DNA of 64,000 nucleotides from a virus: positions 1-64,000 of the IMG/VR virus record IMGVR_UViG_3300042516_004943; one strand, given 5' to 3'. The number at the start of each line of letters is the position of its first letter. Position 1 is the first letter of the stretch. The notes beneath the pieces are model-generated. The model did no database searches, was not told the DNA's origin, and worked only from the letters and a program-made list of their open reading frames with translations. Shown here piece by piece: positions 1 to 40,944 of the stretch. A program made the position numbers and the translations under genes.

Positions 1-1927
1 CATTGACCAGTTTGCGAAGTTCACCGCGCAAGCATTGGTTCTTTCCAACGAAAGCAGTATAGATTTCGTCAGCATACAGAACCTCACCGAAGTTGGCGTT
101 GGATTCGATTTCCTTCAGCGCATTGGTGAAGTAAGTCTTGAAGTCCATCACCTTACTGGCTTGAGCTTTCTTGAGCGTAGGGCCGTTCTTGATGCCGATG
201 ATGGTAGGAGCAACGATGCCTTTGGTCTTGGTCAAGTCAGCAAGCGTCTTGATCTTGGCACAGCAAGACATGAGGGCAGTCGGAGAGACTTCGCAACCAT
301 TGATCTTGCCCATGAACCGCTCAATCTCAACGTAGCAGTATTTCGTAGGGTCGAGCTTGGAGAAGTCAACATCTTCTTCCTGCCAGTAGTCACTCTTGAC
401 TTTGTGATAGGACGAGAGATTTTTGGCGTTGGGATCAATCGAAAACACTTTGCTGGTGTGTTTGCTCCGATTGACCATGAGATTGTTACCATTGGCCTTA
501 CGAGTTGCGCGAGGCAGGAGAACCTTGGGCAACGTAGCCATGTCAACAATGTCAGCGTCGATCAGTCCGAGCGCATCCATCTGACGTTTGCGGTCAGCAG
601 CATTGAGAGGCGTGAACACAATCACCTTGCCGTCTTTTTGCAAGAAGGGGAAGATGTGGTTGATGATCTGATTCTGAATCTTCTTCGTGTTCTCAACGAT
701 AGTAATGTCATTGTCGAGCGTGACAAGGTGAGTCAGTTCTTCGACCTTGCCGCCTTTGACAATGTATGCCCCACCGATATAACCTTTGCGCGGAGTATAG
801 AGTCTGAATCCTTTGCTGTTGGCAAAGTTGATCGTGAAGTCTTTTATGGTCTTGCCGTTGTAATCGTAACCATTTTTGCCGCGCATAGCGTTGCACACAA
901 CATAGTATGGACTATTGAAGTTGTGCATTTCACCAAGCATACGCTTGAATGACCACAGGCTTTGTGCGCCCTTGAGTTGCTTGCTGATGTCAGCAACGAG
1001 GAAGTCACGAATAGCAAGGATGCGCTTTTTGAGATTCGCAATCGTGCGATCCGTGTATTGCAAGCCTTCACGCGAGGCAGCGATGTCGCAGTCGCCAATG
1101 GCAACGTCGAGTTCGATGTCGCAGTTAGTGAGCAAGCGTTCGATCACCGCTTCGTCGGCATTGTTCTCGTCGAGCTTGAGAGCGTCCGAGCTAATGCGAT
1201 AAGCGATATTACCCATGATAGCAAGGGCTTGACGACCATACGAGTTGCGGTCTGCTTTGAGCAAACGCCAATCGCTACCGCTATAAAGAGGATTGCGAGT
1301 CTCGTAGGTGAAGTCGGCAGCACCGCGCACAACAGGTTTGACCTTGAAGTGCTGGAACAAGTTGCGAGCAGTCGAGACGAAAGTTTCGCAGTCGGCAGGT
1401 TTTACTGGAATCACAATTTCAACACCATTTGCATCCTTGGTAGGAGCAGATGCGAGTTTAGCGATTTGACCGATCTGCGAGGGATCAATGTAAGCGTTGT
1501 AAGTAGTCTTAACGCCGTTGAGATAGCTATTGATGACAAAGTTATCACCATAAGCAAAAGCGGACTTACTGCCAAGACCTAACTGCCCGATGAGGGAGTT
1601 ACTTTTACGCTTCGTTGATTCACCATAAAAGGCATAAATCTCTTGGATGTCTTGTTCGGAAAGGCCAATGCCGTAGTCACGAATCTTGAGTTCAAGAGAG
1701 AGACGAGAAGGAAGCGTGACTTCAATCGGGCGATTGTGACCAGCTTCGGTATGTGCGTCCACAGCGTTGCAAGAATACTCGCGCAAGACTGCAAGAATCT
1801 TGTCGGAATACAACTGGTTGCGGAGGACGTTGAAGATGTGAGCAAGACCTTCTTGTTTGATGCCGAAAGAAACAGCACCTTGAATACCTTGCGTGACGAC
1901 ATTAGCTTTGGGTTGTGTGACGATCAT
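1..1927 (-). CDS. rIIA: rIIA-like protein with N-terminal GHKL/HSP90-like ATPase domain (partial, runs off left edge)
   Basis: Not in ORF track. Manual translation from ATG 1927: MIVTQPKANV...NQLYSDKILAVLREYSCNAVDAH...IRDYGIGLS...STKRKSNSLIGQLGLGSKSAFAY (GHKL N/G boxes typical of rIIA). Frame still open at the left edge; next to rIIB. Confidence 0.9.
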   Translation of the reverse strand, partial: MIVTQPKANVVTQGIQGAVSFGIKQEGLAHIFNVLRNQLYSDKILAVLREYSCNAVDAHTEAGHNRPIEVTLPSRLSLELKIRDYGIGLSEQDIQEIYAFYGESTKRKSNSLIGQLGLGSKSAFAYGDNFVINSYLNGVKTTYNAYIDPSQIGQIAKLASAPTKDANGVEIVIPVKPADCETFVSTARNLFQHFKVKPVVRGAADFTYETRNPLYSGSDWRLLKADRNSYGRQALAIMGNIAYRISSDALKLDENNADEAVIERLLTNCDIELDVAIGDCDIAASREGLQYTDRTIANLKKRILAIRDFLVADISKQLKGAQSLWSFKRMLGEMHNFNSPYYVVCNAMRGKNGYDYNGKTIKDFTINFANSKGFRLYTPRKGYIGGAYIVKGGKVEELTHLVTLDNDITIVENTKKIQNQIINHIFPFLQKDGKVIVFTPLNAADRKRQMDALGLIDADIVDMATLPKVLLPRATRKANGNNLMVNRSKHTSKVFSIDPNAKNLSSYHKVKSDYWQEEDVDFSKLDPTKYCYVEIERFMGKINGCEVSPTALMSCCAKIKTLADLTKTKGIVAPTIIGIKNGPTLKKAQASKVMDFKTYFTNALKEIESNANFGEVLYADEIYTAFVGKNQCLRGELRKLVN

Positions 1928-8079: not shown

Positions 8080-8338
8080 ATCTACTAATCTAGCATATCT
8101 TACAGGAAAGTCAAGTGTTTTTCTCTCATGTCGATGCCTTAAACATATTAGCAAAATGTGTCGAAATTTTCTTAATAAATCGACAAATAGCGAAATATCA
8201 AATTGGAAAATAGCGAAATAGGAAATACAGAAATAGGAAATAGTTATCAGTCAAATAGTAGAATAAATAGATAATAATCAATGATCATTGAATAAAAATG
8301 AATTATTATTATTGTATTGTCTGCTATGCTTGTTATTG

Positions 8339-8413
8339 TAAGTCTTTCATTATCAACCACTTACGCCTGGGGGCCAGGCCCGGTTCTGTAAGTGACTGAT
8401 TATCAAGGCTTTA
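8339..8413. repeat. 75-bp tripartite element, copy 6
   Basis: TAAGTCTTTCATTATCAACCACTTA + CGCCTGGGGGCCAGGCCCGGTTCTG + TAAGTGACTGATTATCAAGGCTTTA. Confidence 0.95.
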
Positions 8414-15261: not shown

Positions 15262-16563
15262 TTATCGTGATACAGTTTGCGTATAATTAAATCTTAATGC
15301 AAAGTTAATATCTTTGAATTGACCCCTCTTGTTACCAAGGGCATCATAAAAATTATACAACCAACCATGGCTAAATCCACGACCATTACCATCAAGACCA
15401 ATAGAAAATGGATCGGTTGGTATGTACGGATTACTGTTATATCTATTTATAGTTGGTGTAAAAAATAATCCACCAATCCATCTAGAAGTATTTGGGACAG
15501 TTGCAGGAAAGAATATAGCGGCACTTTTGCTAGCTGTATTGCTTCCAGCAGTATAGGCATTGTTTGTAACACTGCCACCAATATCAACATGCGTATACAG
15601 TCTTGTTGCACTTTTTGTAGTGCCAATTGTGTTTGGAAGCGCTGTATTTGGGGGATAATCGTTAATATTTAGAGCATTATTTCCAAACTCATCATCAGCC
15701 CCCAAAAGAGCGGCTGCTGCATATCCGTTATCGCCTTCTGTGCATGGTAATAGAGCCCATGGATTAATCCATGTAAAAGGCTGAAAGCTGCCGATTTGTG
15801 CATATTGTTTTTCTATATTAATTCCGTTTGCGCTCATTTCTCCTAAGAAGTCACGATAACGACCCATAGCTTTCATTTTTCCAAGAGTAGAGAAACTTCC
15901 GCTTGTAATGTTTGGTACTTCAATTGGCGTAACAAGAGCAGGTATAGAAACTTGCAATGTATATGTTAATCTTAGAAATTGGAATGTATCTAAAATAACA
16001 TTCGATGGTAAAACAAATCTACTAAAAAGTATAAAGCCGGTTGGCCTTCCATAGCCGCTTTCTTGAACTGGAAAGCCGCCACCAGAGGTTTCTTTCATGC
16101 CGATTGCTACCTCTCTAACGGTATGCTGTCCTGTTTGTACGGCGTTAAAATCCCAAACCTTTGTATACACACAGCCATCTGCAACATCTTGGCGAAGACA
16201 TGTACCAGTTGTATTTCTGCTTGACCATCCGCCATCTGCGCTTGGTGCAATTGTATTTCCTCTATAATTGGTTGCAGTTGGGTTTGCTGCGTTGCTTGAA
16301 TATACAGCATGAGAAATTACATCGGGTATTCCTCTTGCATGTCGTAAACCGCTAGCACCACCATCAAAAGAAAATGCACTTCTATCATGGCCAACTAAAA
16401 ATCTCAAACCAGTATCTTGTATTAGATTTGGCCTCATTTTGTCGCCAAAAGGCTGACTTACTTCACCATTAGGATGAACTATTTCTACTTTCCACTCTCC
16501 CTTGACAAGCATTTTGTTTTCAACAAATACTTCTTTGTATTTAGGTAAAATAATATTGGCCAT
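15262..16563 (-). CDS. putative virion structural protein, family A (PFG...NLI.D)
   Basis: N-terminal GEWKVEI...PFG...NLIQD and SRFVLP...LRLTY shared with 16614, 23962, 27188. Confidence 0.65.
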   Translation of the reverse strand: MANIILPKYKEVFVENKMLVKGEWKVEIVHPNGEVSQPFGDKMRPNLIQDTGLRFLVGHDRSAFSFDGGASGLRHARGIPDVISHAVYSSNAANPTATNYRGNTIAPSADGGWSSRNTTGTCLRQDVADGCVYTKVWDFNAVQTGQHTVREVAIGMKETSGGGFPVQESGYGRPTGFILFSRFVLPSNVILDTFQFLRLTYTLQVSIPALVTPIEVPNITSGSFSTLGKMKAMGRYRDFLGEMSANGINIEKQYAQIGSFQPFTWINPWALLPCTEGDNGYAAAALLGADDEFGNNALNINDYPPNTALPNTIGTTKSATRLYTHVDIGGSVTNNAYTAGSNTASKSAAIFFPATVPNTSRWIGGLFFTPTINRYNSNPYIPTDPFSIGLDGNGRGFSHGWLYNFYDALGNKRGQFKDINFALRFNYTQTVSR

Positions 16564-16613
16564 ATATTGATTATATTAACATTACAGTAGTAATTATACT
16601 TTTTTTTAATTTT

Positions 16614-17687
16614 TTATCTATTAAAAATCCATCTGATTTTTACAGTTATTGGAGTATTTGCAGAAATAGTTTGTGCAGTATTGAATTTGTAATATATTGC
16701 TGTATTTGAATTAGTATCAGAATGGTGCCATAAATAAATTCCACCAACTGTTCTGCTTGATGTGTGCGAAGGAAATGAATAGATGGCATCTATACTACTG
16801 AAAGCGTCTGTTTGTTGTAGGTTTGAAAATGAAACTGTAGCTAACGGACCAGACGGAGTATAGGTTATTCTAGAATTAGAATAGTTTACTGGACTATGAG
16901 CACTATCAAAAAAGCCTATATTATTAACCCATGTAGCTGTGCCAAAAATATTTTGAAAAGCGCCATAAGTTGCTGGATCATTTGCAGTAACTATTGTACT
17001 CGTTGAATCAACCGTAAAATCTCTATAAGCATATCCATTTGTGTTGCCAAGCGTGATAATTGTATTATTTCCAGTAATAGTTGGCAAAAGACCGGTATTG
17101 TTTGTAGACATTCTAATATAGCCAGTAAAGTCCAAGCTGGCTCCGGTAAGGGCAATTGATAAATCGCTATTCAAATAATTTATAATTAAATTTAAAGAAT
17201 ATGTTATTTTTAATATATCTCCACTTTCTAAGTTGAGGGCACCTGGAAATACAAACCTACTTAATGTTATTGGGGTAGTATTTGCAATTGCGAAATTTCC
17301 AACACAAGCTTCAGAATAGCTGACCTGTGTGCCTGATGGCACAGCTGCAAATGTAAAATCACGGGTTAATATTATTTTATTATTAACGGAATCAATATTG
17401 GTTGTAAAAAATGTACTTCTGTGGGTTTGACCTAAAATTGTTCCTAGCAGGTTTGTTTGCGTTCTTGTTGGTGATGAGCCGTTTGAGCCAACCCTGCATG
17501 TTTGAATAAATGAGTGCAGTCCTTCGCTATAGCCTGTTAGAATTTTTTGATAAAACGTATCTAAAATTAGATTTTTATTTGGCTTTTTTCCAAACGGAAA
17601 TAATACTTTGCCATTTTTTTTATGTACAGAAACTAAGTATTCTCCAAATATTTTAGAAGTATTTTGTATGTCTATATCTGTTTGCAT
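16614..17687 (-). CDS. putative virion structural protein, family A
   Basis: PFGKKPNKNLILD...SRFVFP...LKITY. Confidence 0.65.
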   Translation of the reverse strand: MQTDIDIQNTSKIFGEYLVSVHKKNGKVLFPFGKKPNKNLILDTFYQKILTGYSEGLHSFIQTCRVGSNGSSPTRTQTNLLGTILGQTHRSTFFTTNIDSVNNKIILTRDFTFAAVPSGTQVSYSEACVGNFAIANTTPITLSRFVFPGALNLESGDILKITYSLNLIINYLNSDLSIALTGASLDFTGYIRMSTNNTGLLPTITGNNTIITLGNTNGYAYRDFTVDSTSTIVTANDPATYGAFQNIFGTATWVNNIGFFDSAHSPVNYSNSRITYTPSGPLATVSFSNLQQTDAFSSIDAIYSFPSHTSSRTVGGIYLWHHSDTNSNTAIYYKFNTAQTISANTPITVKIRWIFNR

Positions 17688-17711
17688 AAACTATATTATA
17701 ATAATAAAAAA

Positions 17712-20700
17712 TTAAAACATTTCTAATCCAGAAGCATAATAAGTTCCAGATTCATTTATATTTGGATAAATATAGGCCCCAATTCTGCCAAAACCAGAAG
17801 CTGTATAGTTTCCAGTATCTATTCCAGTGATATGGTCTAAAATATCCGTTTCATAAATCACGCTATCAATATTTCCACTTATTGTTCCGCTTTCAAGCGA
17901 CCCAGTAACGCCAACAAAGTATTCATAATAGGCAATGTTTATAATGTTACCGCTTGTTATTCCAGATGTTCCTTCGCCTAAGACAAGTGGATTTTCAGAA
18001 GATGCGAAAAATATATTATCAATTGATGCATTTAGGCCAGTATACATAATGTCTACGCCCGATAATCCACCAAAAAATCCACTTAATTCTAATGGTATTA
18101 TTCCTGTAATATATAATCCAGTATCTATATTTCCAGAAACTGTTTGTCCTGTCATGAAATCTCCGCTGATACCAGTCAAAGAAAATGGTCGCGTACTAGC
18201 AACATATTCAAATCCTGTAATATTTCCAGAAAGCATACCGGTTATAAATTCTTGACTTTCGAATATGCCAGATACATTTGCAAGCACAACTCCGCTCGTG
18301 TATAGTACTCCAGTGCCAATTCCCGTTCCTGTACCTAAAGAAAAATTACCTATTGGATATACAATATCTGTGATTGGAAATTGCCCAAGGCCTGTAGTTA
18401 TAAGTCCGCTTAAAAATCCTATACCAGTATTTTGATTTGATATTCCAGAAAAACCAGTACCGCTATAGAAATTAAATGTAATTCCAACTGCCCTTCTATA
18501 CACATCAGAAAAACCAAAGCCAGAAACTCCAGCATATTCGCCTGATTGTATTAATAAGCCGCGCAAGCCAAGCGTGCCAGTTAATATTCCAGAACCACTA
18601 TTGACTTCTATGTGACCTATAAATCCAGTCATCATTCCATTTCCAAAAACATTTGAAACTGTTCCAGAAAATCCAGACCCTTCCGTAAAAGAATATCCAG
18701 AATATACTAAATTTGGATATTTAAAATTTGAATTTTGAGAATAGAAACTAGAATGGCTTACCGAATTTTGAGAAAAGAAATACTGTTTATTATCTATAAA
18801 ATACCCACTTGATCCGGACGTACCATCGCCTGTAGAGGCATAATTTATAAACCTTAATGATTGATCTAAAACTCCACTAATAAAGCCTATCATTCTTTCT
18901 CTCGGAAGAGTATTTTCTGAAACAAAGCCGCTATTTGAAAAGTTAAATCCATAAACTGTATTTGTAAATCCTGGATCAAAACCAGATTCTCCATTAAATC
19001 CATTAAAATTTAATGCTATTGGTTTTTTGACAGTTCCTATAATTCCAGTTAAAATTCCACTACCAGTAGTTAACTGCTCTAGCGTAAAAGGATTAAACTG
19101 TATTCCAGAGAATCCAGTAAATTGACTATTAATCGTATAGCCCGAATATAAATTTCCATATCCATAATTTAATTGCTCAAATCCGCCAATTCCAGTAAAT
19201 TGTCCAGAATATTTTAAAATATTTTTATATCCAATATGTCCAGTCATTATTCCTGGTCCAAGAAACGGATCATTAAACCCGATAAAACCGCTTTGCTCTA
19301 TGAAAAATCCCGAAAATTCATAACCAAGATCTGGGTCAACAAAGCCTGGGGTTTTTTCAAAATTAATTGAGGCATTTACGCCAGTATCAAAATATATATC
19401 CTGCTCATAATTTTCATAGTAATATCCGCTATATTCACCAGTTATTACCGCGTCCTGATCTTTGCCTGAAAAAGTTCCGTCTCCGAGCATTGTGCCAAAT
19501 AAAAATCCAGTAATAAGAACTGGCTCTAGTATCGAATCTGGTAAAAATTTATACGACACATTATCTTTTATAAATCCGCTATTTTGAAAAATTCCCGTTG
19601 CCTGTAGAAAAAACCCATCTTCTTCTAAAATGCCGCTTATGTATCCGGTAATATATTCGTATACAAATCCAGTATATGGAAAATCTACTCTTGTATTATC
19701 TATAAAGTATCCGCTTTGTGCTAAAGCACCAGCAGATCTAACAAAATTAAAATTATTATCTATTGATCCGTTAATATACCCAATAACTTGCTCTGCGCCA
19801 GTTGTTCTGTAAGGGGGAAATTGTATTACATTTCTTTCTAGCAATGTTAGCCTTTGACCACTATAAGATCTACTGTATGGCCCAAATATTCCTATCCCAC
19901 TATTTATCCCAGAGTATCCTGTGTATATGCCACTGTAAAATCCGCTAAAACTTGATACAAGGTTTGGGGCAAATGGTTCAAAGGTTCCATTCGGATACAT
20001 TATTCCACTAATTTTACCATACAGGCCTTGATTGTATATATTTTCTATATCCAACAATCTGTAATTAACTACTCCTGTTATATAATCTGCGCCAGTAATT
20101 TGGCTTTGATTGCCGAATTCTAAATATTCCGTTGGCGAAAATGCATTCCACATATTGCCTTCTTGAACTATTGACCAGCTTCCAATATCTCTTAAAAAGA
20201 AACCAACAATATTTGCGCTCATTATATTAGATAATGATTCTGCGGCTTGAGCCGTTTTATTCTCTGAAGCGATATATGCCAAACTATTTATATTTCCACT
20301 TACTGTTGAAAATGAAATATCTGATACGTTTACTGCTATAGGTAATGGCGGCAAAATTATAGCTAAAGATTCTGCCATATTAATAGATATGTCATCAGCT
20401 ATTCTTCTATAATCTCCTCTTAAAACCAGAAATCCGCCGCAGTAATGATCAAGCGCTGCAGTATCATAAGTTTGTCTTCCCAAATTGCTCATTCCGGCCC
20501 CGATCACCATTCTTTTCGGCATCCAGTATTCTGGCTCTTGCACTGTTCCAGAGCGTGTAGTTATTCTGTAAGGCTGTGGGAATGTTCCGGTATATATGCC
20601 AGGATCTTTTCCAAAGAAAGATCTTATTTCGTAAGAATCAAGCTGAGAATAAACCATCAAACAAACAAATTTTTCAGTTCCATTATCTGACTCATAAAAA

Positions 20701-21323
20701 GAAAATGGGTCTCTTTCTACGACTTTTTTTACTTGATCTGCTGAATAGTCTACAGCAAATCCTTTTTTATCTCCTCCAAATATTTCATCATAAATATAAG
20801 TTGTACCTCGAGGTCTAAATTGGCTGGTTGAAAAACATGGCGCAACAACCCCATAGGTATCTACGGATTTATCAAAGCAAAAATAAGGAGGCTCTTCTAC
20901 GCTTGGTCTGTATAAGCTTGTTTCATATTTACCTCTTGCATGTTTAAAAAAATAAAAAACTGTTGTTGGGTCTTTTCTAAATTGAAAATTTGGATCGCTA
21001 GTTCCTGAAAATTCTAGCTCGCCACAATTATCAAGTGCATTTAAAAATATACCAGATTCATGCCAATTAACATTTTTGGGAAATTTTAAAGAAGTTCCCG
21101 AGCATAAATTGCCTATTCCAAACACTTCATTTCCAAAACCAATATTATTATGCTTTCTTAGTGGAAAGTATGCGAATTCCAAATCGTCTTTAATACTGCA
21201 CAAATAATCAGTAAAATCATTTATCTTTGATATTGCATCTGCAGAATAATATCCCCTGCCTTGGCCACTAATTTGCGCCAAGAACCTACTAACTAATGGG
21301 TTAATGATATCATAATGTAGCAT
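17712..21323 (-). CDS. large putative virion/fibre protein with Ser/Thr-Gly modules
   Basis: 1203 aa; many SG/TG dipeptides; N-terminus weakly resembles family B. Confidence 0.65.
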   Translation of the reverse strand: MLHYDIINPLVSRFLAQISGQGRGYYSADAISKINDFTDYLCSIKDDLEFAYFPLRKHNNIGFGNEVFGIGNLCSGTSLKFPKNVNWHESGIFLNALDNCGELEFSGTSDPNFQFRKDPTTVFYFFKHARGKYETSLYRPSVEEPPYFCFDKSVDTYGVVAPCFSTSQFRPRGTTYIYDEIFGGDKKGFAVDYSADQVKKVVERDPFSFYESDNGTEKFVCLMVYSQLDSYEIRSFFGKDPGIYTGTFPQPYRITTRSGTVQEPEYWMPKRMVIGAGMSNLGRQTYDTAALDHYCGGFLVLRGDYRRIADDISINMAESLAIILPPLPIAVNVSDISFSTVSGNINSLAYIASENKTAQAAESLSNIMSANIVGFFLRDIGSWSIVQEGNMWNAFSPTEYLEFGNQSQITGADYITGVVNYRLLDIENIYNQGLYGKISGIMYPNGTFEPFAPNLVSSFSGFYSGIYTGYSGINSGIGIFGPYSRSYSGQRLTLLERNVIQFPPYRTTGAEQVIGYINGSIDNNFNFVRSAGALAQSGYFIDNTRVDFPYTGFVYEYITGYISGILEEDGFFLQATGIFQNSGFIKDNVSYKFLPDSILEPVLITGFLFGTMLGDGTFSGKDQDAVITGEYSGYYYENYEQDIYFDTGVNASINFEKTPGFVDPDLGYEFSGFFIEQSGFIGFNDPFLGPGIMTGHIGYKNILKYSGQFTGIGGFEQLNYGYGNLYSGYTINSQFTGFSGIQFNPFTLEQLTTGSGILTGIIGTVKKPIALNFNGFNGESGFDPGFTNTVYGFNFSNSGFVSENTLPRERMIGFISGVLDQSLRFINYASTGDGTSGSSGYFIDNKQYFFSQNSVSHSSFYSQNSNFKYPNLVYSGYSFTEGSGFSGTVSNVFGNGMMTGFIGHIEVNSGSGILTGTLGLRGLLIQSGEYAGVSGFGFSDVYRRAVGITFNFYSGTGFSGISNQNTGIGFLSGLITTGLGQFPITDIVYPIGNFSLGTGTGIGTGVLYTSGVVLANVSGIFESQEFITGMLSGNITGFEYVASTRPFSLTGISGDFMTGQTVSGNIDTGLYITGIIPLELSGFFGGLSGVDIMYTGLNASIDNIFFASSENPLVLGEGTSGITSGNIINIAYYEYFVGVTGSLESGTISGNIDSVIYETDILDHITGIDTGNYTASGFGRIGAYIYPNINESGTYYASGLEMF

Positions 21324-21333
21324 ATACTAGCAT

Positions 21334-23127
21334 TTATTTATAAAACCCACCAAGCGCTATATTCACATCTGATATTCCAGATAAGGTTTTTAAAATATCA
21401 ATTCCTATTCTATCACCAGCAGTTACTTCAAAAGAAATTTTTGAATTTGCATCTGTTTCTGCATACATCATTCCAGAGCTTATACCAAAATCTATTAAAT
21501 ATTCTTTAACCCCATTTTTATTCTTCTTATAAAATTTTCCAGTTAATGGAGAAAAATCTGGAAGATTTCTATAGCCTATCAGCCCAGTCATTATTCCAAG
21601 TCCGGAATTTGAAAATTGAACTCCACTAAATCCACTTTTTGCTGGAAAAAATCCACTATATTCATATCCGTACTGTTTAATAAATCCGTTTTCAGATTCG
21701 AAGGCCTCAAATTGGTAAGTTCCGTTGCCACCCGTTACAAATCTTCTTTGCTCATATGGATATAAAAAGTATCCACTAAATCCATCAGTATTGGGTGGAT
21801 ATCCCGCACCAGTATGAATTGGTCTGAAATTTGGCAATACCTCAACTTCTAAAAATCCACTGATTATTTCCCCCCTTAGTTCTTCTCTTACCCCTATTGG
21901 CCCATATAAATATCCAGTAAATCCTCCAGACACATCTTGGTATAATCCAGTAAATTGGTTTTGATTTGTATTGCTAAATATTCCAGAATATATATAATTT
22001 ACGTTCTGAAATCCTGGCATGCCACTAAAGCCAGAAAATAAACCGCTTCCAGTAGGAAAATAGTATTGCTGCCCACTTAAAAAATATCCACTTGAATCGA
22101 TTATGAATCCGTTTCTTCCTGTTGGAAACCCACTTATTCTAAATCGAAATGATGATAGTGGATAAAAAATATTTGTTGAGCTTCTATATCCACTTAAAAA
22201 GCCAGTAATTACATTATCAAGCTTATATACATTTCTACTACCTATTGCTTGCGTATATACTGCTGGGCCAAAATTATCAGTATTAGCGGATCCTGTTAGC
22301 GCATTTATATTAAACCCAGTAAATGAATACCCTAAATTTTGATCAAAACCAGGCTCTCCATTAAAACCACTAAAGTTAGTATTTGAAAAATATTTAGCAT
22401 TGTTATTTATAATATATCCACTACCGCCATTAAATAAAAATGACCGTTGTCTTTCTAAAAATCCGCTAATATATCCGGTAATATAATTTGTAAATGTAGT
22501 TGGTCCAGCCCCAGAATTACCACAATATAATCCCCATCCAGTAAATTCAGCTGGATATTGAATATATTGTTCATATAAATTTTCTTTTATTTGCACATTA
22601 TTACCATAATAATTAAAAGCTACTGGTATTTTATCGAATGATGCGGCGGCAGAATAATAACCTAACAAGCTTATTGACAATGATCGCATTTCATTTGCTG
22701 ATGAATGAATATTTAGGCCTAATATATTATGTGGTGTTATTTTGTAATCTAAAGGTCCATTATTAGAGTATTGATATTTTCCTAAAGTAAATGCTCCAAC
22801 ATATTTAGTATCAATAACACTTTCTGGCTTTCTTGTATAAAAAGATCCTTCTAACTTATCATCTCCTGTTGCTGGGTGTGAGCATGTGACCAAAAATCCA
22901 GTGGCCATAAAAAAATCACTCATATATATTTCATTTAAATAATTTCCAACAACTGGCCATCTGCTATAAAATGATATTGGAGCATATCCTCTTAAAAAAA
23001 ATCTATCCGTTAATTGTATCCCAGATGTATTTTTAACTTGCATGCCATCAATAAATAAACGATTGTCATGGGCAGTTAAAATGGACCCATTTAAATTGAT
23101 AGATTCTATGGATAGTACGCTTGGCAT
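21334..23127 (-). CDS. putative virion protein, family C, with SG-module insertion
   Basis: Two tandem domains similar to the N-half of 39046-40944; second domain interrupted by SG modules. Confidence 0.6.
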   Translation of the reverse strand: MPSVLSIESINLNGSILTAHDNRLFIDGMQVKNTSGIQLTDRFFLRGYAPISFYSRWPVVGNYLNEIYMSDFFMATGFLVTCSHPATGDDKLEGSFYTRKPESVIDTKYVGAFTLGKYQYSNNGPLDYKITPHNILGLNIHSSANEMRSLSISLLGYYSAAASFDKIPVAFNYYGNNVQIKENLYEQYIQYPAEFTGWGLYCGNSGAGPTTFTNYITGYISGFLERQRSFLFNGGSGYIINNNAKYFSNTNFSGFNGEPGFDQNLGYSFTGFNINALTGSANTDNFGPAVYTQAIGSRNVYKLDNVITGFLSGYRSSTNIFYPLSSFRFRISGFPTGRNGFIIDSSGYFLSGQQYYFPTGSGLFSGFSGMPGFQNVNYIYSGIFSNTNQNQFTGLYQDVSGGFTGYLYGPIGVREELRGEIISGFLEVEVLPNFRPIHTGAGYPPNTDGFSGYFLYPYEQRRFVTGGNGTYQFEAFESENGFIKQYGYEYSGFFPAKSGFSGVQFSNSGLGIMTGLIGYRNLPDFSPLTGKFYKKNKNGVKEYLIDFGISSGMMYAETDANSKISFEVTAGDRIGIDILKTLSGISDVNIALGGFYK

Positions 23128-23135
23128 ATTTTTTA

Positions 23136-23969
23136 TTACATTACCGATCTGAACATTGCTTTCTGAAAATTATCTACTGCTATATTATAATTATAAATAT
23201 CATTTTCAGAAAATGCATAACCAACAGAAGCGAGCGCTATGTTCGCATCCAACGTTGATGTTACTTTGCTTAAGTAATTATTGCCAAAAAGTAACAATTT
23301 TAAATTATTTTTTAAATCTATATCTGTAGGTAATAACGGAAACCAATTTCCAAAAACTTGCCCATTCAAGTAGCACTTGGTAGTGTTGATGCCAATCATA
23401 AGTCCCGTTCCGCTAATATTAGAATTGATCATTTGATCGGCGGTATATCCAAATCCGCCTAAAGTATTAATTATATTATAAACATATCCAACAATGCCAT
23501 CATTTTTACTAAAATTTAACTCGAAGGCCCCAACGCCAGAAAGTTCTTGAATAAAATTTCTAGTATTTACTCCAATAAATCTTCCATCTTTTGTTATGTT
23601 TGAAAATGGCGTTCTATTGTATACTGATATATGAACGTTTTTAAATGATGCAAATAATGTTAATGGTATATCAGTATTTCCATAACCCGTTACTCCGGTT
23701 ACGCCATTTTTATTGTGGGTTTGCTGTCCAAACCAAGAGATTTTATACTTATTAGGATCTATAAGATTAAAGCTGTGCGAAGATGCGGTTCCTCCAATAA
23801 AAGGATAAAGGGCTATAAATTTATCTATTAAATTTAATTGCCACAATGCATCAGCAAATTCGGCAAGTGCGCCAACTTCATGATTTCTAAACACTTTAAA
23901 GCCACCGCAAGCATTAATGAATGGCATTACGGTTGTGTTAAAAGAATCGTTTACTCGCCTTTTATACAT
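23136..23969 (-). CDS. putative virion protein, family B
   Basis: KFIALYPFIGGTASSHSFNLIDP...NGVTG.TGYGNT shared with 28343-29548. Confidence 0.6.
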   Translation of the reverse strand: MYKRRVNDSFNTTVMPFINACGGFKVFRNHEVGALAEFADALWQLNLIDKFIALYPFIGGTASSHSFNLIDPNKYKISWFGQQTHNKNGVTGVTGYGNTDIPLTLFASFKNVHISVYNRTPFSNITKDGRFIGVNTRNFIQELSGVGAFELNFSKNDGIVGYVYNIINTLGGFGYTADQMINSNISGTGLMIGINTTKCYLNGQVFGNWFPLLPTDIDLKNNLKLLLFGNNYLSKVTSTLDANIALASVGYAFSENDIYNYNIAVDNFQKAMFRSVM

Positions 23970-26900
23970 ATGTTTCTCTATTCATGGCCAGAGTAATATT
24001 TAGAGATATTAATTGATCTTCAAATTTTGTCTGATAGTTATCAAATCTGTAATACCAACCAACATATGGAATATTTATACCCTCAAGATAGTACGCAAAA
24101 TAATCTTCAAAAACAAAAGGTTTTGTTGGGTGCCAAAGGCGATTTGCGTTCCATTTTTCCATAGGGGCAAAAAAGAAGCCACCGATGCCCGTATCATTAT
24201 TTGGAAATTCTGCTTTGAATTGAAACCAATAATTAATTTCTTTTGGATATGAATTAGATGGGTAGTCTGTTGTTAGGCCTCCATATTCATACGTTGGCCA
24301 AGATGGAAATGGAGTATTTGCAAGATTAATACGGTATCTTTTTCCATAATAATCAGTATTATTAGGATATTTGCCTTGAATACCGATCTCTGTAACTTCA
24401 TCTCCGCCAGGTATTACAAACATAAATCTAGTATCGTTTTCAGGCGGAAATGGTGGCGGGTAGTTTGGATAGAATCCCAATCCACTTTCAGGCTCGTTTC
24501 CGATCATAACTGCTGATAGATAGATATTTGGGTTTATTTGATTTCCAAAAAACCATTTATTGTGCGCTGGCCACCAAAACCCGTACATTGGGCCTGCTTG
24601 CGAGCCAACAGCTGAAGCTATTCCGTTAGGAGTAATGGTTCCGAATATTCTACTATAATTTCCAATAAGTTTGATTGAGCCGCTTCCGTTAAAATCGCCA
24701 TAAACTACATTTTCTCCGGTTACAGGTATTGGAGTTATCATTGCCGGAATTCTTATAGCTGTATCATATCTTACTTTTACAAATTCTCCAGTTGTTAGTT
24801 CTATACCCGACAATTGCTTTCTAAAACCAAAGATGCCCGTCATAATTCCACTATTAGACCTAATAAAATAATCATTTCTTGAACCTATGAATCCGGTAAG
24901 TGATCCTGTAATGCTATTTGTTGGATATGTATAGAAAACTCTATGACCTATAAATCCAGAAAGAATACCTGTGCCAAAAGCTCCGGTTAGTCCAGAAAAT
25001 GTAGAGCCTTCTGGGAAATTGAAACCAGTATAAGCGAACCCGGTATCGATACTAAAACCGGGCATTCCATTAAAGCCAGAAAATGTATTTCCGGTTGGAA
25101 AATAATATTGTTGGTTATTTAAGAAATATCCGCTAGATCTTAGTTGTGGAAGTTCTGGATATAAATCTTGAAAGGTAAAAAATTGACCAAGATCGTTTCT
25201 AAATCCGCTTATAAAGCCATTAATTTTTTCATAGTTTATTTTTGGCCAACTCTCCCCAGAAAATCCACTCTGTGATGGGAAAAAGCCCGAGAAAGAAAAG
25301 CCTAATCCAGTATAAAAGCCTGGCATTCCGCTAAAACCAGAAAATGTATTTCCGGTTGGAAAATAATATTTTTTACCACTTAATATATATCCACTAAACC
25401 CTTGACTTCCAGGTATAGGAACAGTAAATGGAATGAATGTGCCAAATGCATTTGTTACACCGCTTCTGAAGCCAACAATGCGCTCTCTTTCAAGTACAGT
25501 ATTGTATATAAAACCGCTACCATATTGTAGATTGAACATTCTACCGCTCGGATTATATCTCCAGCCATATTCGAAAGATGGTATGTTATCGAATCCCTGC
25601 TCTTCAGTACCAAAAGATCTAAGAACGTTTCTGTTTCCAATAATACCGCTGGCGTAACCAGGGCCAGTATTTCCGTTAATTGTTTTTACTGTATAGCTAG
25701 GAAAATTTAAACCGCTAAATTGAAAACCTAAATAGCTATCAAATTCTGGCAGCCCTGAAAATCCGCTTAATGGTATATTTTCATATAAATTTCTATATCC
25801 TAATATTCCAGTCAAAATTCCAGTTCCAGAACTTGTATTATCAACACCGCTAAATCCGCTCCCAGTTATATATGGAAAACCGCTATATGCAAATCCAAGA
25901 TAAGCATCAAATTCATTTGGGTTTTCTCCAGCAAATCCAATAAATTCACCGCTTTTATAAAAAAAGTTTCTGCTGCCAATAAATCCAGTATAAATTCCAG
26001 TTCCAGAATTAGTAAATTCTATACCACTAAATCCGCTTGAAAATTGGAAAAAACCTGAGTATATAAATCCAGTTTCATTACTAAATCCTAATTGGCCAGA
26101 AAATCCAGAAAAAGATTGTCCGGTAGGAAATGCTCTTTGGGATCCTTCAAAAAAATATCCGCTAGATAACTTATCAATTTCACTAAATCCGCTAAAAATG
26201 GTACCGGATTGAAAACCACTTATATAACCTATAATTCTTTCCGTCCTTATTTCTTGTATTGGTGGAAATTGATATCTTTGATTATTTAAATAGTATCCAC
26301 TAGAACTATAAAGCAAATTCGATTCAAATCCAGAAAAATTACCAGTAGTATCACGAAATCCGCTAATATAGCCAGTTATTGGTTGAGAAATTACTTTGCG
26401 ATTTGCGAATGGAATTTGTTGTCCGTTAATAACGTATCCACTTAAATATGCATGTTTAAATTGAGGATCATTTTGATTATAAAATGTAAAATTATTAAAT
26501 TGGTCTAAATTTCCACTCCTGTAACCATATACAATTTGATATTCTTTTGTTTTAACAGGGGGTATATTATATAACTGACCAGAAACTATTATTCCGCTAC
26601 CTATATCTATTGGGTGATTGTGCAAGTTAAAATTGCCACTATTATCAATATATCCGCTTAAAAATCCGGTAGCAAGCTCTTCAGATGTAAATAAAAATCT
26701 AGACCATATACCTCGCCTACCGGCATTGTTAGATAAATCTGATGCATTTGGTTTGAAACCAGCTTCTGTATAGGTGACTCTTTCCGATTCAATAGGAAAA
26801 TCATATGTTCTAGAAAAAATAGCCATTCCTGATCCAGATATGTAAGTTCCTGTGGCTCTATTAAAATTTGGCCTAATATAGTTTGTTTGTTTATAAAATC

Positions 26901-27186
26901 TATGCAAAGCTGTATCTTTATCTGAAATTGGCTTTGTTCCTGTACCAAGCTGCATAGTTCCATCAGTAAGTCTTGAAAAAACAAGCCCCCCTCCAATACT
27001 TGAAGTTTTAGCATTGCCAGGGCTCATTAATTCTACCATTGATTCGAGCCATAAGTCTAATATTCTATTAGACTTCATTTCTTTTCCAAATGGAAACGAA
27101 GATTCAATGCCGGATTCTCCAGATCTACATATTTCGACATTCCATTTCGCCGATAAGTATGTGTTTATTTGTGCGTTTGCTTCCAT
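23962..27186 (-). CDS. putative virion protein, family A, with about 620-aa SG-module insertion
   Basis: Family A domain split between WSRFLF and IELTTGEFVKVRY. Confidence 0.65.
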   Translation of the reverse strand: MEANAQINTYLSAKWNVEICRSGESGIESSFPFGKEMKSNRILDLWLESMVELMSPGNAKTSSIGGGLVFSRLTDGTMQLGTGTKPISDKDTALHRFYKQTNYIRPNFNRATGTYISGSGMAIFSRTYDFPIESERVTYTEAGFKPNASDLSNNAGRRGIWSRFLFTSEELATGFLSGYIDNSGNFNLHNHPIDIGSGIIVSGQLYNIPPVKTKEYQIVYGYRSGNLDQFNNFTFYNQNDPQFKHAYLSGYVINGQQIPFANRKVISQPITGYISGFRDTTGNFSGFESNLLYSSSGYYLNNQRYQFPPIQEIRTERIIGYISGFQSGTIFSGFSEIDKLSSGYFFEGSQRAFPTGQSFSGFSGQLGFSNETGFIYSGFFQFSSGFSGIEFTNSGTGIYTGFIGSRNFFYKSGEFIGFAGENPNEFDAYLGFAYSGFPYITGSGFSGVDNTSSGTGILTGILGYRNLYENIPLSGFSGLPEFDSYLGFQFSGLNFPSYTVKTINGNTGPGYASGIIGNRNVLRSFGTEEQGFDNIPSFEYGWRYNPSGRMFNLQYGSGFIYNTVLERERIVGFRSGVTNAFGTFIPFTVPIPGSQGFSGYILSGKKYYFPTGNTFSGFSGMPGFYTGLGFSFSGFFPSQSGFSGESWPKINYEKINGFISGFRNDLGQFFTFQDLYPELPQLRSSGYFLNNQQYYFPTGNTFSGFNGMPGFSIDTGFAYTGFNFPEGSTFSGLTGAFGTGILSGFIGHRVFYTYPTNSITGSLTGFIGSRNDYFIRSNSGIMTGIFGFRKQLSGIELTTGEFVKVRYDTAIRIPAMITPIPVTGENVVYGDFNGSGSIKLIGNYSRIFGTITPNGIASAVGSQAGPMYGFWWPAHNKWFFGNQINPNIYLSAVMIGNEPESGLGFYPNYPPPFPPENDTRFMFVIPGGDEVTEIGIQGKYPNNTDYYGKRYRINLANTPFPSWPTYEYGGLTTDYPSNSYPKEINYWFQFKAEFPNNDTGIGGFFFAPMEKWNANRLWHPTKPFVFEDYFAYYLEGINIPYVGWYYRFDNYQTKFEDQLISLNITLAMNRETYV

Positions 27187-27187
27187 T

Positions 27188-28300
27188 TTAAATTCTAGCC
27201 ATAGATTGCCTTAAATTAATTACAATTTTTTTATCAGATCTTTTTATTTGCGGGTTATTTAATTTCCACAACCATCCATCAACTGTATTTTGTCTATTTG
27301 TTTTTACAGTTGTAAATAAAAAACCTCCTATAGTTTCATTTGCTGTTGGATTATTTATATCAAATACATATTCAATATCTCTGTAAAAACTTCCTTGAGT
27401 ATAATTAGATGGGTTTATTGTTCCGTTGGCTACAGAAAGTCTGCTACCAAGCCAGTTAGTAAATAGGGTATTATTAATATTATTTTCATTCTCAAAAAAA
27501 TTTGTTAAAAGATAAGCTGTGCCAAAGCATTTATTTGTGCATGTTTCTATTTCTGCACAAAACTCTTCACAAAATGGCATAAAAGAAGATCTTGGCGAAT
27601 CGCCATTTCTGATAACTGGATTTCCATCTAAATCAAAGCTTCCGAATATATCATCAAATCTTCCAACTAATTTTAACCATCCATTAGCATTGAATGTTCC
27701 AGAAGATAAATTTATATTTATTGGATTGACAATAGCACTACACGAAATAGAAAAATTATAAAACAATCTTAACCACTGCCCTCTTGGTATAAGAATCGGG
27801 CTGTCTAAAAGAAATTTTGTAAATAATTCTCCGTTCCATCCGTTTTTAAGCCCTATTTCAGAAGCTGTATAAGACTTTGGAAACATTGGTAAGTTTTCTG
27901 GCTTTGGAAAATCATATACTTTTTTAAAAACTCTTTTTCCTAAACTATAAAAATCTTCAATTGAGCATGATTTATCGTTTATAACGTTTGTTTCTAATGT
28001 TTGATATGTTAAATTAGTATCGCTGGCTTGCGCTGGAGCTATTCCGGAGCCTAGCACAGCGTTTCCTTTCAAAAAAGATGGTATAGTATTCCAATTTAAA
28101 TTTAAATGGGGGCCATAGCCATTATTTGCAGATAGAATATCAAGGGCCTGATCTAGTATAAGGTTTTTTTTATATGAACTTCCAAATGGAAAAGTTTCTT
28201 TATTATTCTCATCAACTATAGCTACGTTCCAGGATCCACCAATTTCAAATGATGGGTTTATAGATACGCCTAAATGATTTTTTATATGCAAATTTAACAT
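27188..28300 (-). CDS. putative virion structural protein, family A
   Basis: GSWNVAI...FPFG...NLILD...FTKFLL...LRLFY. Confidence 0.65.
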   Translation of the reverse strand: MLNLHIKNHLGVSINPSFEIGGSWNVAIVDENNKETFPFGSSYKKNLILDQALDILSANNGYGPHLNLNWNTIPSFLKGNAVLGSGIAPAQASDTNLTYQTLETNVINDKSCSIEDFYSLGKRVFKKVYDFPKPENLPMFPKSYTASEIGLKNGWNGELFTKFLLDSPILIPRGQWLRLFYNFSISCSAIVNPININLSSGTFNANGWLKLVGRFDDIFGSFDLDGNPVIRNGDSPRSSFMPFCEEFCAEIETCTNKCFGTAYLLTNFFENENNINNTLFTNWLGSRLSVANGTINPSNYTQGSFYRDIEYVFDINNPTANETIGGFLFTTVKTNRQNTVDGWLWKLNNPQIKRSDKKIVINLRQSMARI

Positions 28301-28342
28301 TTTTATTAATTATGATAATATATATTTTTATATTTTATAATT

Positions 28343-29548
28343 TTATATTTCCGTAAATTGCATAATATTAATGCTTGCAGCAGTTGAATCAGACAGGTAT
28401 AGTCTTCGTGGGCCAAAAACTTCTATTTTATTTATAGATAATGTTGGCGTAATACATTGATTTTCTTTTTTAAATCTATCATAAATTTCATCTTTTAATG
28501 GGTATAGGTGGCGACTTGTGAGTGTTGTAACTTTGTCAATTCTAATGCTTGGAGCAACCCTTGGATTCGTTTCATCAACGAGCATTTCGCTTTCGCCAAG
28601 CCTGAATGTACCAACGTTTCTTCTCAAGATGGTCTGGAATTCTTCAACTATATCATAAAATATTTTATTTTCATAATCATCAAGGGCTGTACCTATGGTG
28701 GCAAATCGTATATTTGCCTTGGCGGTTTGTTCCGTTTGTCCTTTAATAGTTTGGGCTACAGATCCAAAAGCTCTATGCGTTAACAATAAAAATGGATATT
28801 GGCTAAATGTTGGGATTGCTTCATTAAAAGAATTTAATTGCGTTGGGTTTATTCTGCTTGATACAGCATTTGATAATAGAGAATATGCGCCTAATTTTTC
28901 TCCGCCTGTATAGCAATAAATACCATTAACGCCAACTATTAGTCCCCAGGCCTGTGCATTTAATTGATCTCCTGCGTCAACACCAGCGCCTCTAAATGGT
29001 GGGAACGTTCCGCAGCTATAAGTAAAAATTGGTGCTTGAAGAATTCCTTTTGATGGATCATTATCTATAAAAGTTTGCGGTCTTCTGCGCAAACTAATTG
29101 TATGCATCCATGATGAAGAGTTAGGGTCGGGTGTCGATCCTATAAGGGCACATTCTGCAGATGTATCATACCATCTAGTAGCGTTATAAACAGAAACGTG
29201 TATATCATTATCGCTAAACCATGATGGCGCAACAAATGTATTTCCATATCCAGTTCCTGTATTTGTTACCCCATTTTTATCGAAAATTAATGAGTTGTAC
29301 CAAACAATAGTATGCCTATAAGGATTTTTTAAATTAATGCTCATTGATGGTCCAGATCTGCCAACCAGTGGATAAATAGCTCTAAATTTTGACCAAAGAT
29401 TTGTTGATATAAGAGCTGTGGTTAAAAAGTCCAAAGCTTTAATTTCATCCGAATTTGGCTGAACCGGAGACGTTTCAAACATTCTTTGTATGAATAGCAA
29501 GGATGCTGGATGAAGTGTATCTCTTAACTGCTTGCTGATTATTTGCAT
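28343..29548 (-). CDS. putative virion protein, family B
   Basis: LWSKFRAIYPLVG...NLKNP...NGVTNTGTGYGNT. Confidence 0.6.
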   Translation of the reverse strand: MQIISKQLRDTLHPASLLFIQRMFETSPVQPNSDEIKALDFLTTALISTNLWSKFRAIYPLVGRSGPSMSINLKNPYRHTIVWYNSLIFDKNGVTNTGTGYGNTFVAPSWFSDNDIHVSVYNATRWYDTSAECALIGSTPDPNSSSWMHTISLRRRPQTFIDNDPSKGILQAPIFTYSCGTFPPFRGAGVDAGDQLNAQAWGLIVGVNGIYCYTGGEKLGAYSLLSNAVSSRINPTQLNSFNEAIPTFSQYPFLLLTHRAFGSVAQTIKGQTEQTAKANIRFATIGTALDDYENKIFYDIVEEFQTILRRNVGTFRLGESEMLVDETNPRVAPSIRIDKVTTLTSRHLYPLKDEIYDRFKKENQCITPTLSINKIEVFGPRRLYLSDSTAASINIMQFTEI

Positions 29549-37632: not shown

Positions 37633-39053
37633 GAACTTTAATCAGATCATCACAGCTTCATCCAGAAATTTCAGGATTAATAAAAAATTATAGCGATCCT
37701 AATTATCCAAATTATGCAGATATATTCGGAATATCTGGAGTTAATACTTTTAGAAGTGGCAATTATTTGCTAGTTACTGCAAATCAGGGGGTTAGATCAG
37801 TTAATAATTTGACTGGCTCAATAACAGTTACTGGAACCAGCGGTGTTCGCGCAACTGTACAAAATAATAATATTACAATATCATTAACTGGGGCAAGCTC
37901 TGTTACAACTCTAAATACATTAAACGGAAATATAAATTTAGTTCCAAGAGGCCTTATTGATGTTTGGCCCTTAAATTCCACACAAATAGCTATTAGCGGT
38001 GTTCAAATTACAGGTGAGGGTACTGTGTTTAGTTATTACTCTGGTGGAACAGTTTATTTGAGAGGCACTTCGATAGGAAGTTTAAATAATAAATCTGGAG
38101 CTTTAAACATTTTGGGCATTGGCGGCGTAAATGTTATCAATACGGGTCAAAATATTTTTATTGATGCATCTTTTGCCGCGCTATCAGGAGTTCAAAGAAT
38201 TAATGGAATCGGCGGCGTTCCAATCACTTTAAGCGAAGGGTCAGATATTGATATAAATACAGTAGGGTCTGATATATCAATAAATTATATAGGAAAAGGA
38301 TGGGGGCTTGGCAATTATTACTATGCAACCGGTGTTGGCGAAAATTATGTTGGCAATTACAATCTTTTTGAAAATAATACTGGCGTTTTGATTAATGGCA
38401 ATGCAAATGTAATAGAAAAAAATAATAATGTCACAGCTATAAATTCTCATAATACTAGAATTAAGGATTCGACAAAATCCACTTTTATTAATACCAATGG
38501 TGGTACACATTTTAATTTGACAGGATCTACTTTTGTTAATGGCGCCGTTGGTAGTGGTATATTTAGGCACCCATATGCTTTTGGTATAGGAATGGCAGCA
38601 ACAAATACATACGCAACAACAATGCAAATGAGTTGTAAGCTTCAAGGCATTGAAATGCTAAAAGCTCTTTATGTTCCTGGCACTAAATATTCTGGTATTT
38701 TTATTCCAACAGGAAGTGTTATTGTTGGTCACATAGATTATATTGGTACCAGATATGATATCACCGATTTTAACGCAAGTTTTAATTTGGTTAACGAAGG
38801 AATATACGGAAGAAAAGACTTTATTGTACAAAGAGGGTCCGAGCCGCAAGTGTATGTTCGTGATCAGTCAGATTTATTCGGTGGAAATAATAAATATTCT
38901 TTAATATTAAGTGGTAGCGAAGATCAAGTGTTTTATTTACTTGGAAGCGGCTATTCTGGTCAATTAGCAGAGGATAGCGTTGATAAGGTTCATGACGTAT
39001 TGTTCATGGCAAATGTAAGCTTTACAAATTTCAATTTACATACCAATGTATAA
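37629..39053 (+). CDS. putative fibre-like virion protein
   Basis: Repeated V.S(L/V)N..SG.I.(L/I) units and an Asn/Gly-rich beta-repeat region. Confidence 0.55.
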
Positions 39054-40944
39054 CAATAAAAAGCTCAGGTTTGTTCCATCTGATTCTTCTTTTAATATAA
39101 AAGAATTATATATGGACGGGTCGCAAGTTACACTTGACGACTGGAAGCAAACTATATTGATAGATGAAAAGCCTATTAGTATACCTGGCAGCAATGCGTA
39201 CGTAATGTTGCCTTCTGAAATTGGTCTTCCTTCGCCAAGCTATTTTGTTTCATACCCATATACTGGAGAATCTTTGTTTGAAGAATATCAAGCATCTTAT
39301 TATTTAGCTACCGGATGGTCGGTTTCATTAGGCAAGCCTGGAATATCTCCAGCACATTTAAATTCTACTGGCGGATTGATAATTGCGCCATTAAGCGGAA
39401 GATTGTATGGAAGGCCACTAAACAGTCCAATTAAAACTACAATAACTACTTTTTATATAGATTCAGGCGCTAATAGTTATTTTAATTTTGGCCAAATTCC
39501 AGAAACAGCTATTTCTGGAAATCAAATTATAGGATGGGATTTATTTTATTCTCTTTCAGGAGCAGAAGATCTTTCTGTCACTCTTCACGGAAGATATAAT
39601 GATATATATCAAGAAAATATAAGCGATGGCGTTATAATGACCAGCGGTGATGCTGCCGTATCATTCTTTTTAGAATATGGAGCATTAACTGGGGATGGAG
39701 TATTGGAGTATTATACAGCAAATGAATTTATAGCAACGCGATGGGGAATATATGCTGGTACGCCAGGAACAAGCACTCTTTCTTTAAATCCTCTTGCTAC
39801 TCAATATCCTTTAAGTGGAAGATTTTATTACAGAGATCCTAAAGATAATGTCAAAACAACAATATCACATTTTAGCTTAAGCACTGGAAGCATTGCTAAT
39901 TGGCAAAATATTGTTCCTGATTTTTACGTTCCGTTTAGAAAAATTATTGGACTTGATATTTATTATGGCCTGAATGATTTAAAAAATTTACATATAATAT
40001 TGGGTGGTCAGGGAATAGCTTCAGCAAACTATTTTAAAAGCGTCGTAACTAAGCAAATTTTTGATATATTTTCTGGAGATATTGAAACAAGATTTGGCCA
40101 ATTCTCTACCGGAACTGTTGGCGATTTTGGCGCATTTACTGGACTTGTTACAGCATCTGTAAATAATTTATCAGGATTTGTCACTGGATTTTCTGGGCAG
40201 TCTGTAGAAAATTTTAATAATCTTTCTGGCTATCTAACTGGCCTAATTCAGGCAAGTAGTGCTGGCGTAACAAGCTTGAATGGCTCTTATGGAGCAATTA
40301 GTTTAAATGGGATAAGCGGTATACAAATAAGTAGTCAGGGCTATCCATCACAAAATGTAACGGTAGAATATACAAGCGGTAATTTTAATAGTATTGATTT
40401 CTCTCCAAATATTGATGCAAATATTCCATATAAGGAAGGCAGGTTATATTATAGCGCAGATACAAAAACATTTAATGCATATTTAGACAAGCCAGATGTT
40501 ACTTTAAATATCGGTCAAGAAGAATATGTGAGGGCAGTCAATAGAACAAATTCAACTTTAATTAACGGATCAGTTGTATATATTTCTGGGGCGCACGGCA
40601 ATAGGCCTCAAGTTTGGCCAGCAATTGCTACAAACGATTATCATACATCGCACATCCTTGGAATTACAACGCATCAGGCATTAAATAATGATGAGGTGTT
40701 GGTAACCACATTTGGATCTGTTGGTGGATTAAATACATCTAGTTTTACTGCAGGAAGTATATTGTATTTGTCTAGCACTGTGCCTGGAGCCATAACAAAT
40801 ATTCCGCCAATAAATGGTAAAAGAATAAAAATTGGATATGTTTTAAGTTCAACCAATAATGGTAGAATACTTGTAATAAAGCCAGAAGAAGACATTGATA
40901 ATTATACTACAATAAGAAATTTAACTATATTAAGATATATTTAA
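39046..40944 (+). CDS. putative virion protein, family C
   Basis: Tandem N-terminal domains paralogous to 21334; VTSLNG unit; C-terminal GSVVYISG...GSILYLS...GYV domain common in phage fibres. Confidence 0.6.
   Translation: MYNNKKLRFVPSDSSFNIKELYMDGSQVTLDDWKQTILIDEKPISIPGSNAYVMLPSEIGLPSPSYFVSYPYTGESLFEEYQASYYLATGWSVSLGKPGISPAHLNSTGGLIIAPLSGRLYGRPLNSPIKTTITTFYIDSGANSYFNFGQIPETAISGNQIIGWDLFYSLSGAEDLSVTLHGRYNDIYQENISDGVIMTSGDAAVSFFLEYGALTGDGVLEYYTANEFIATRWGIYAGTPGTSTLSLNPLATQYPLSGRFYYRDPKDNVKTTISHFSLSTGSIANWQNIVPDFYVPFRKIIGLDIYYGLNDLKNLHIILGGQGIASANYFKSVVTKQIFDIFSGDIETRFGQFSTGTVGDFGAFTGLVTASVNNLSGFVTGFSGQSVENFNNLSGYLTGLIQASSAGVTSLNGSYGAISLNGISGIQISSQGYPSQNVTVEYTSGNFNSIDFSPNIDANIPYKEGRLYYSADTKTFNAYLDKPDVTLNIGQEEYVRAVNRTNSTLINGSVVYISGAHGNRPQVWPAIATNDYHTSHILGITTHQALNNDEVLVTTFGSVGGLNTSSFTAGSILYLSSTVPGAITNIPPINGKRIKIGYVLSSTNNGRILVIKPEEDIDNYTTIRNLTILRYI

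Follow-up and report, generated by a model that had tools for sequence, protein, structure and literature searches.

Probable recursive insertion of a ~100-residue module into copies of itself in fibre-like genes of an uncultured phage

The T4 gp37 needle is an intertwined trimer with repeated His-x-His iron sites, in which the chain extends to the tip and then returns. The DysF domain has two long antiparallel strands, one from each terminus, with a 77-residue loop between them; in ferlins DysF is nested once, and it carries conserved arginine/tryptophan stacks (PMC3898210). Here we describe a module of ~100 residues that recurs in three putative fibre genes on the minus strand of a 64,000-nucleotide stretch of viral DNA (hereafter the window), which is positions 1 to 64,000 of IMG/VR record IMGVR_UViG_3300042516_004943 (73.8 kb, with an estimated completeness of 49%). 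The fibre genes probably lengthen by inserting the module in copies of itself, building a branched tree. The sequence architecture, the insertion of module blocks in host-domain turns, the quantisation of length and one gain of a whole module are observed, and a DysF-like fold of the module is predicted from structural models. Literature searches found no account of nested modules or domains in phage tail fibres, nor of DysF in phages.

A three-part module and its nested arrangement

The module comprises three ordered parts, A, B and C, which were called by three hidden Markov models (HMMs) seeded from proteins of the window and iterated over 50 homologues. Element A (44 columns; I.G[YF]ISG ... 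SGY..Y.FP) is made up of a long strand and then an SGY...Y.FP hairpin, element B (33 columns) reads FSGF.G.PGF..G[FY].[FY]SGF..SGFSG, and element C (14 columns; G.GI.TG.IG.R) is a long closing strand. An earlier reading of the same DNA from its letters and open reading frames (ORFs), the sequence-only reading, had split the module into two halves, of which half A is element A and half B is elements B and C together. Seven contiguous modules from three ORFs align as a single unit of ~95 columns (45% mean column identity), and the module regions of these ORFs match one another by BLASTP (E 1e-23 and 2e-19). Element scores reach 56 bits, and element order and spacing are kept in homologues at 35-45% identity. 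The module is an unannotated, new sequence family.

Strings of elements were parsed with the grammar M -> A M* B M* C. The module probably has two sites at which it accepts copies of itself, one between A and B (A|B) and one between B and C (B|C), as judged from sequence. The clearest string belongs to P0001, a protein of 1074 residues encoded at 23962..27186 (minus strand), in which a host domain resembling the tail fibre family phrog_4176 is split by a 618-residue block of six modules. The N-terminal host piece (residues 1-172; 26671..27186, minus), aligned to residues 24-132 of the paralogue P0005, ends in an SRFLF strand. The block itself (residues 173-790; 24817..26670, minus) was delimited by HMM calls, a perfect parse, strands of an AlphaFold2 (AF2) model and the ranges of structural matches, and is followed by the C-terminal host piece (residues 791-1074 and the stop codon; 23962..24816, minus).

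The P0001 string, AAAABCBCBCBABABCCC, holds six elements of each kind and is accepted by the grammar without edit, giving the topology 1(2(3(4)))(5(6)) with a maximum depth of four. Module 1 (M1) is composed of A173-207, B531-560 and C777-790, and M2 of A217-261, B474-498 and C507-520. Inside these lie M3 (A268-308, B413-447, C453-466) and M4 (A316-356, B358-388, C394-407). On the second branch, M5 (A568-613, B613-644, C758-771) encloses M6 (A653-700, B700-732, C737-749). The ORF described by the sequence-only reading is real, with four A elements ahead of three B-C pairs and a degenerate fourth B (residues 531-560, score 7.6), and the three closing segments it had seen stacked are the C elements at 737-749, 758-771 and 777-790. 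Its inference of modules within modules is also supported, while the single AAAA-BBBB hairpin it had drawn gives way to a branched tree with two insertion sites; the stalk it had pictured, lengthening with each insertion, is one possible shape of the nested modules. The 34-bp exact repeat it reported was likewise recovered; one copy (25076..25109, minus) lies at the junction of A6 end and B6 start and the other (25337..25370, minus) at that of A5 end and B5 start. Both copies fall within an 82-nucleotide repeat (83% identity, family D4) that covers these two junctions.

P0002 (1203 residues; 17712..21323, minus) belongs to a second host family and carries five nested modules in a block at residues 438-975 (18399..20012, minus) with the topology 1(2(3(4))(5)). 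This ORF, too, is real, and its element order is richer than the AAA-BBB first given for it. The automatic HMM string is AAAABCCBABCC, and completion by eye with two B elements and one C, all degenerate, gives A[A[A[ABC]BC]B[ABC]C]BC; the added elements (B ~706-741, B ~928-960 and C ~962-975) are by-eye calls only, below the HMM threshold. Past the nested block, residues ~976-1203 (17712-18398, minus) hold a different, shorter repeat with SGNI / ITG motifs, which is marked in the DNA by repeat family D12 (copies at 17863, 18121 and 20284). The third module-bearing ORF, absent from the earlier list, encodes P0003 (597 residues; 21334..23127, minus), which represents a third host family and has three tandem ABC modules without nesting.

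Homologues were sought with P0001 by phmmer against 1.84 billion representatives (48 hits); a search of 5.8 billion clusters with the module profile gave 46 hits, a set nearly identical to the former. All of the homologues found are unnamed or 'hypothetical protein' and lie on metagenomic contigs, the longest of 170 kb, and among them the modules are confined to the three host families. Across 34 distinct architectures with 1-10 A elements, element counts are balanced (r = 0.91 for A and B, 0.85 for A and C), with A first in 33 and C last in 32. Nested transitions (AA 61, BA 56) outnumber the tandem transition CA (19) in the homologues. Random permutations of the element strings parse equally well in 0-4% of cases for most strings. 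The automatic calls give a perfect parse in ~20 of 57 proteins and are 1-4 edits off in the others, mostly because of degenerate C or B elements; several of the missing C and B elements resurface at the expected positions as sub-threshold hits.

Insertion in host turns and gain of a whole module

The host domain of P0001 is related to a described tail fibre family. A PHROGs search matched P0001 residues 39-148 to positions 35-128 of phrog_4176 'tail fiber protein' (E 7e-5), and residues 285-369 of P0005 to positions 231-307 (E 1e-7). The 309-position profile has no room for the module block of P0001, and the likeness concerns the host domain only. The same holds for the HFTV1 tail chain 9h4p_BD, which is either the hub (gp44) or the fibre (gp42) and resembles the host domain alone. 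P0005 (27188..28300, minus) is a module-free paralogue with a 5-residue turn at the insertion site, and residues 15-131, 793-855 and 973-1070 of P0001 are collinear with its residues 24-132, 167-226 and 298-369. In an alignment of this host turn in 43 family members, which included short forms from the 1.84 billion representatives, the stretch from SRF[LV]F to L..G..[LV][RK].Y is 5 residues long in 25+ proteins. The remaining members carry inserts of 98-110, 211, 336, 428-429, 628-630, 736-737 or 1013-1014 amino acids at the same turn. Regression of insert length on A count gives a slope of 101.7 amino acids per A element (r = 0.999). Since the modules interrupt the host domain at a turn, the ends of the block must meet in space and the chain must return.

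In P0003 the module block (residues 215-521; 21565..22485, minus) lies at the point that corresponds to the junction of residues 254 and 255 in an uninterrupted paralogue of its host domain, a 632-residue protein encoded at 39046..40944 (plus strand), to whose residues 65-254 and 255-321 the P0003 flanks align. In the P0003 family, protein length equals 104.7 x nA + 273 (r = 0.97). As judged by sequence, two unrelated host domains carry modules in their turns, and in a third host protein the modules lie between its flanks. The 632-residue paralogue is found among head-morphogenesis genes; it holds two copies of the P0003 host domain, and the P0003 C-terminus matches its residues 114-185 and 255-321. 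Two homologues of 618-633 residues, P0018 and P0019, each bear a single module in the usual turn (insert of 98-99 amino acids) and a second elsewhere in the host domain, which suggests a further permissive site.

One gain of a whole module can be followed in P0002. Seventeen orthologues share the architecture A[A[A[ABC]BC]BC]BC, whereas P0002 and its 98% twin have ~104 extra residues that comprise one A, one B and one C. In P0002 these form module 5 (residues ~801-908; 18600..18923, minus), a whole A-B-C unit between B and C of module 2. Module 5 is 40-46% identical to modules of the other two fibre families over 103-116 residues, compared with only 31% identity to the other modules of P0002. 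The extra A has no A neighbour, so local tandem duplication cannot yield it. The simplest reading of these comparisons is that module 5 was acquired as a complete module from a paralogue.

Predicted structure and alternative explanations

P0001 was modelled with AF2 as a monomer from a 43-row multiple sequence alignment, with a mean predicted local distance difference test score (pLDDT) of 70 and values of ~90 in the host domain. Long strands (11-18 residues) were predicted where each of the six A elements begins and at each of the six C elements, and their lengths under the parse pairing (A/C) are 14/14, 17/18, 14/15, 14/15, 11/11 and 15/16. Contacts in the models were judged from the residues at which structural matches begin and end in a VIA search against 48,161 chains. 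The P0001 host domain gave a match at 1..1072, and numerous small beta-sandwiches matched the range 13..~809 in alignments of only 64-117 residues. M4 (313..409 and 314..406) and M6 (647..754) were matched by small two-strand domains, as were M3 (264..469, 72 residues aligned) and M5 (567..773, 68 aligned). A second AF2 model covered residues 415-1000 of P0002 (a 586-residue fragment, with 18 full-length orthologues of conserved architecture; model numbering is the P0002 residue minus 414). For this model the matched ranges were 182..291, 138..356, 96..492 and 19..561, one for each of the four levels of nesting in the parse. The match ends thus fall on parse-paired A and C in both models, so the contacts are non-local, the opposite of the local and sequential contacts that the sequence-only reading had set against nesting. 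The first and last strands of a module are predicted to pair antiparallel, leaving the module ends adjacent. A Foldseek search with the whole P0001 model found no match with a template modelling (TM) score above 0.1, and the ESM Atlas gave no usable hit.

The DysF structures 4cah, 9h6x and 8p5p match contiguous modules in both models with 83-88 residues aligned, and DysF chains rank first among all chains searched for the P0002 model. These matches cover ~80% of DysF length in both models. No DysF family turned up in Pfam scans, whether of whole proteins or of seven modules taken singly, and phmmer and profile searches of PDB sequences returned nothing at E<=10. No tryptophan is conserved in the module alignment, and hence there are no DysF Arg/Trp stacks; its invariant positions hold G, S, Y, F and I, and only at the end of element C does an Arg or Lys often occur. 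Because the module shares neither the sequence nor the Arg/Trp stacks of DysF, and the fold match is too weak to be decisive, DysF is treated here as the closest analogue and not as its family.

Several results count against recursive insertion, and part of them would be expected if the blocks were ordinary fibrous repeats, grown by local tandem duplication of sub-motifs and held by sequential contacts as in a beta-solenoid or beta-helix, with nesting as a by-product of run order. Tandem duplication of substrings can make AAAA(BC)3 or (AB)2CC, and the 82-nucleotide repeat spans adjacent A-B junctions. Shuffles that preserve doublets often parse as well as the real strings (~2.5-78% of trials in the informative cases), so that, given the local order and the counts, arrangement by itself is weak evidence. 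Similarity within proteins mostly fails to tie an A element to its parse partner: for A against B and C together, the parse pairing gave p = 0.057 in P0001 and a negative r in the P0002-like family. In a post hoc comparison of A with C at the DNA level, significant for P0001 only, the parse pairing gave r = 0.64 with 17 of 720 permutations as good (p = 0.024), and sequential pairing gave r = -0.29. The evidence for a shared history of parse-paired A and C is mixed. An ordinary repeat is nevertheless unlikely. Counts of the three elements stay in balance from 1 to 10 modules, and inserts come in whole multiples of ~102 amino acids; in P0002 the extra A sits amid B and C elements, remote from other A elements, and the extra A, B and C are most like whole contiguous modules of other proteins. 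Moreover, the seven contiguous ABC units in the window act as one domain, the block is inserted in a 5-residue host turn and its ends must meet, and unit boundaries are non-local in both AF2 models.

The remaining points against recursive insertion concern the models and the calls. In the P0001 model the insert has a pLDDT of only 50-75, and the P0002 model is poor (mean 48.9, with 55-80 in the inner two modules). Phage fibres are usually trimers, and monomer predictions of low pLDDT would be misleading if the modules were nested in sequence and their long strands paired between the chains of an intertwined or domain-swapped triple beta-fibre. This arrangement is also improbable, to much the same degree, given that contiguous modules match monomeric DysF over most of its length in two independent models and that the insert lies in a turn of a globular domain, off the fibre axis; balanced counts are equally expected with pairing within one chain. 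G, S, F and Y abound in the region and several degenerate elements were called by eye, as would be the case if the order were made by motif calling in a low-complexity linker of Gly, Ser and aromatic residues. That no real feature exists is very improbable and already contradicted by the HMM element calls, with the scores and the conserved order and spacing given above, by the seven-module alignment, by the conserved architecture of orthologues, by strand-rich models and by quantised length.

Insertion of modules within modules, as the sequence-only reading had proposed, is backed by balanced strings that parse, by the insert in the host turn, by steps of ~102 amino acids and by the whole-module gain in P0002. 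Under this explanation a module whose ends are adjacent would fit a surface turn without breaking the host fold. Modules would land in host turns and, recursively, at A|B and B|C of other copies, and the chain would run outward via the A parts and back via the B and C parts. Each new module would arrive complete, probably through gene conversion or ectopic recombination among paralogous fibre genes, for which the repeated B and C elements may serve as homologous flanks. The likely role of the blocks is to provide host-recognition proteins with a projection of variable size, rich in aromatic, Gly and Ser residues.

Phage context and comparison with described systems

The source is an uncultured phage with a long tail of non-contractile type. 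Positions 14000-64000 of the window (G+C ~33%) encode PhoH, the large terminase, portal, capsid and tape-measure proteins, the last a 2585-residue ORF at 52007-59764 (plus strand; phrog_4211, E 1.5e-43). By the rule of thumb of ~1.5 Å of tail per tape-measure residue, a very long tail is implied. Positions 1-14000 (G+C ~48%) hold only short ORFs and five tRNA genes, all on the minus strand: tRNA-Met (3407-3479), tRNA-Cys (6698-6770), tRNA-Asp (7848-7921), tRNA-Lys (7925-7997) and tRNA-Trp (8003-8079).

The three module-bearing ORFs are in an eight-gene cluster on the minus strand (15262-29548), which is likely to encode virion fibre or surface proteins; a Pfam scan of all eight genes matched no family. 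Besides P0005, module-free host-domain paralogues are present at 16614..17687 (P0006, minus) and 15262..16563 (a fourth paralogue of 433 residues, minus). The genes at 23136-23969 and 28343-29548 (both minus) are mutual paralogues (E 2e-21) interspersed among the fibre genes; neither has a family match, and they may be adaptors or assembly factors. A search of IMG/VR with the P0001 locus found 7 related loci of 3 distinct types, with the three families side by side, while searches for related loci with P0002 and with P0008 found nothing. A cultured-phage collection searched with P0001 and with the module profile gave no match. Two P0002-like proteins, P0045 and P0094, carry a precomputed PKD-domain hit (PF00801), which is consistent with surface-adhesion proteins.

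Repeat proteins are usually thought to expand by tandem duplication, from which this nesting family differs. Recursive self-insertion may tentatively be seen as a distinct form of repeat expansion, in which an in-frame cassette exchanged between paralogous fibre genes builds trees of 1-10 modules. With 0, 1, 2, 3, 4, 6, 7 or 10 modules at a single host turn, the family would be a clean system in which to study the tolerance of domain-in-domain insertion, its genetic origin and its effect on phage host-recognition structures. A naturally insertable module with closed ends would also be of use for protein engineering. If the DysF-like fold is true, it would be the first outside eukaryotic membrane biology, and if the resemblance holds the modules would offer a simple model for the nesting of ferlin DysF domains.

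Tandem-repeat domains of fibres and adhesins (Ig-like, PKD, collagen-like and beta-helix) likewise vary in size by module number. Their head-to-tail units have a counterpart in P0003 (ABC x3), but not in P0001 and P0002, where runs of A precede runs of B and C. The T4 gp37 needle is alike in the out-and-back path of the chain in a phage receptor-binding fibre. Unlike that needle, P0001 and P0002 appear to have a hierarchy of closed modules, and the insert of P0001 has a single H-x-H (residues 188-190) rather than repeated His-x-His. The closest parallel found is the once-nested DysF of human ferlins. DysF domains of ferlins (dysferlin, myoferlin) and TECPR1 would share with the modules, as these are predicted, the design principle of long terminal strands around a loop; ferlin DysF is nested once, whereas the phage modules, according to the element parse and the end points of structural matches, appear to be nested deeper.

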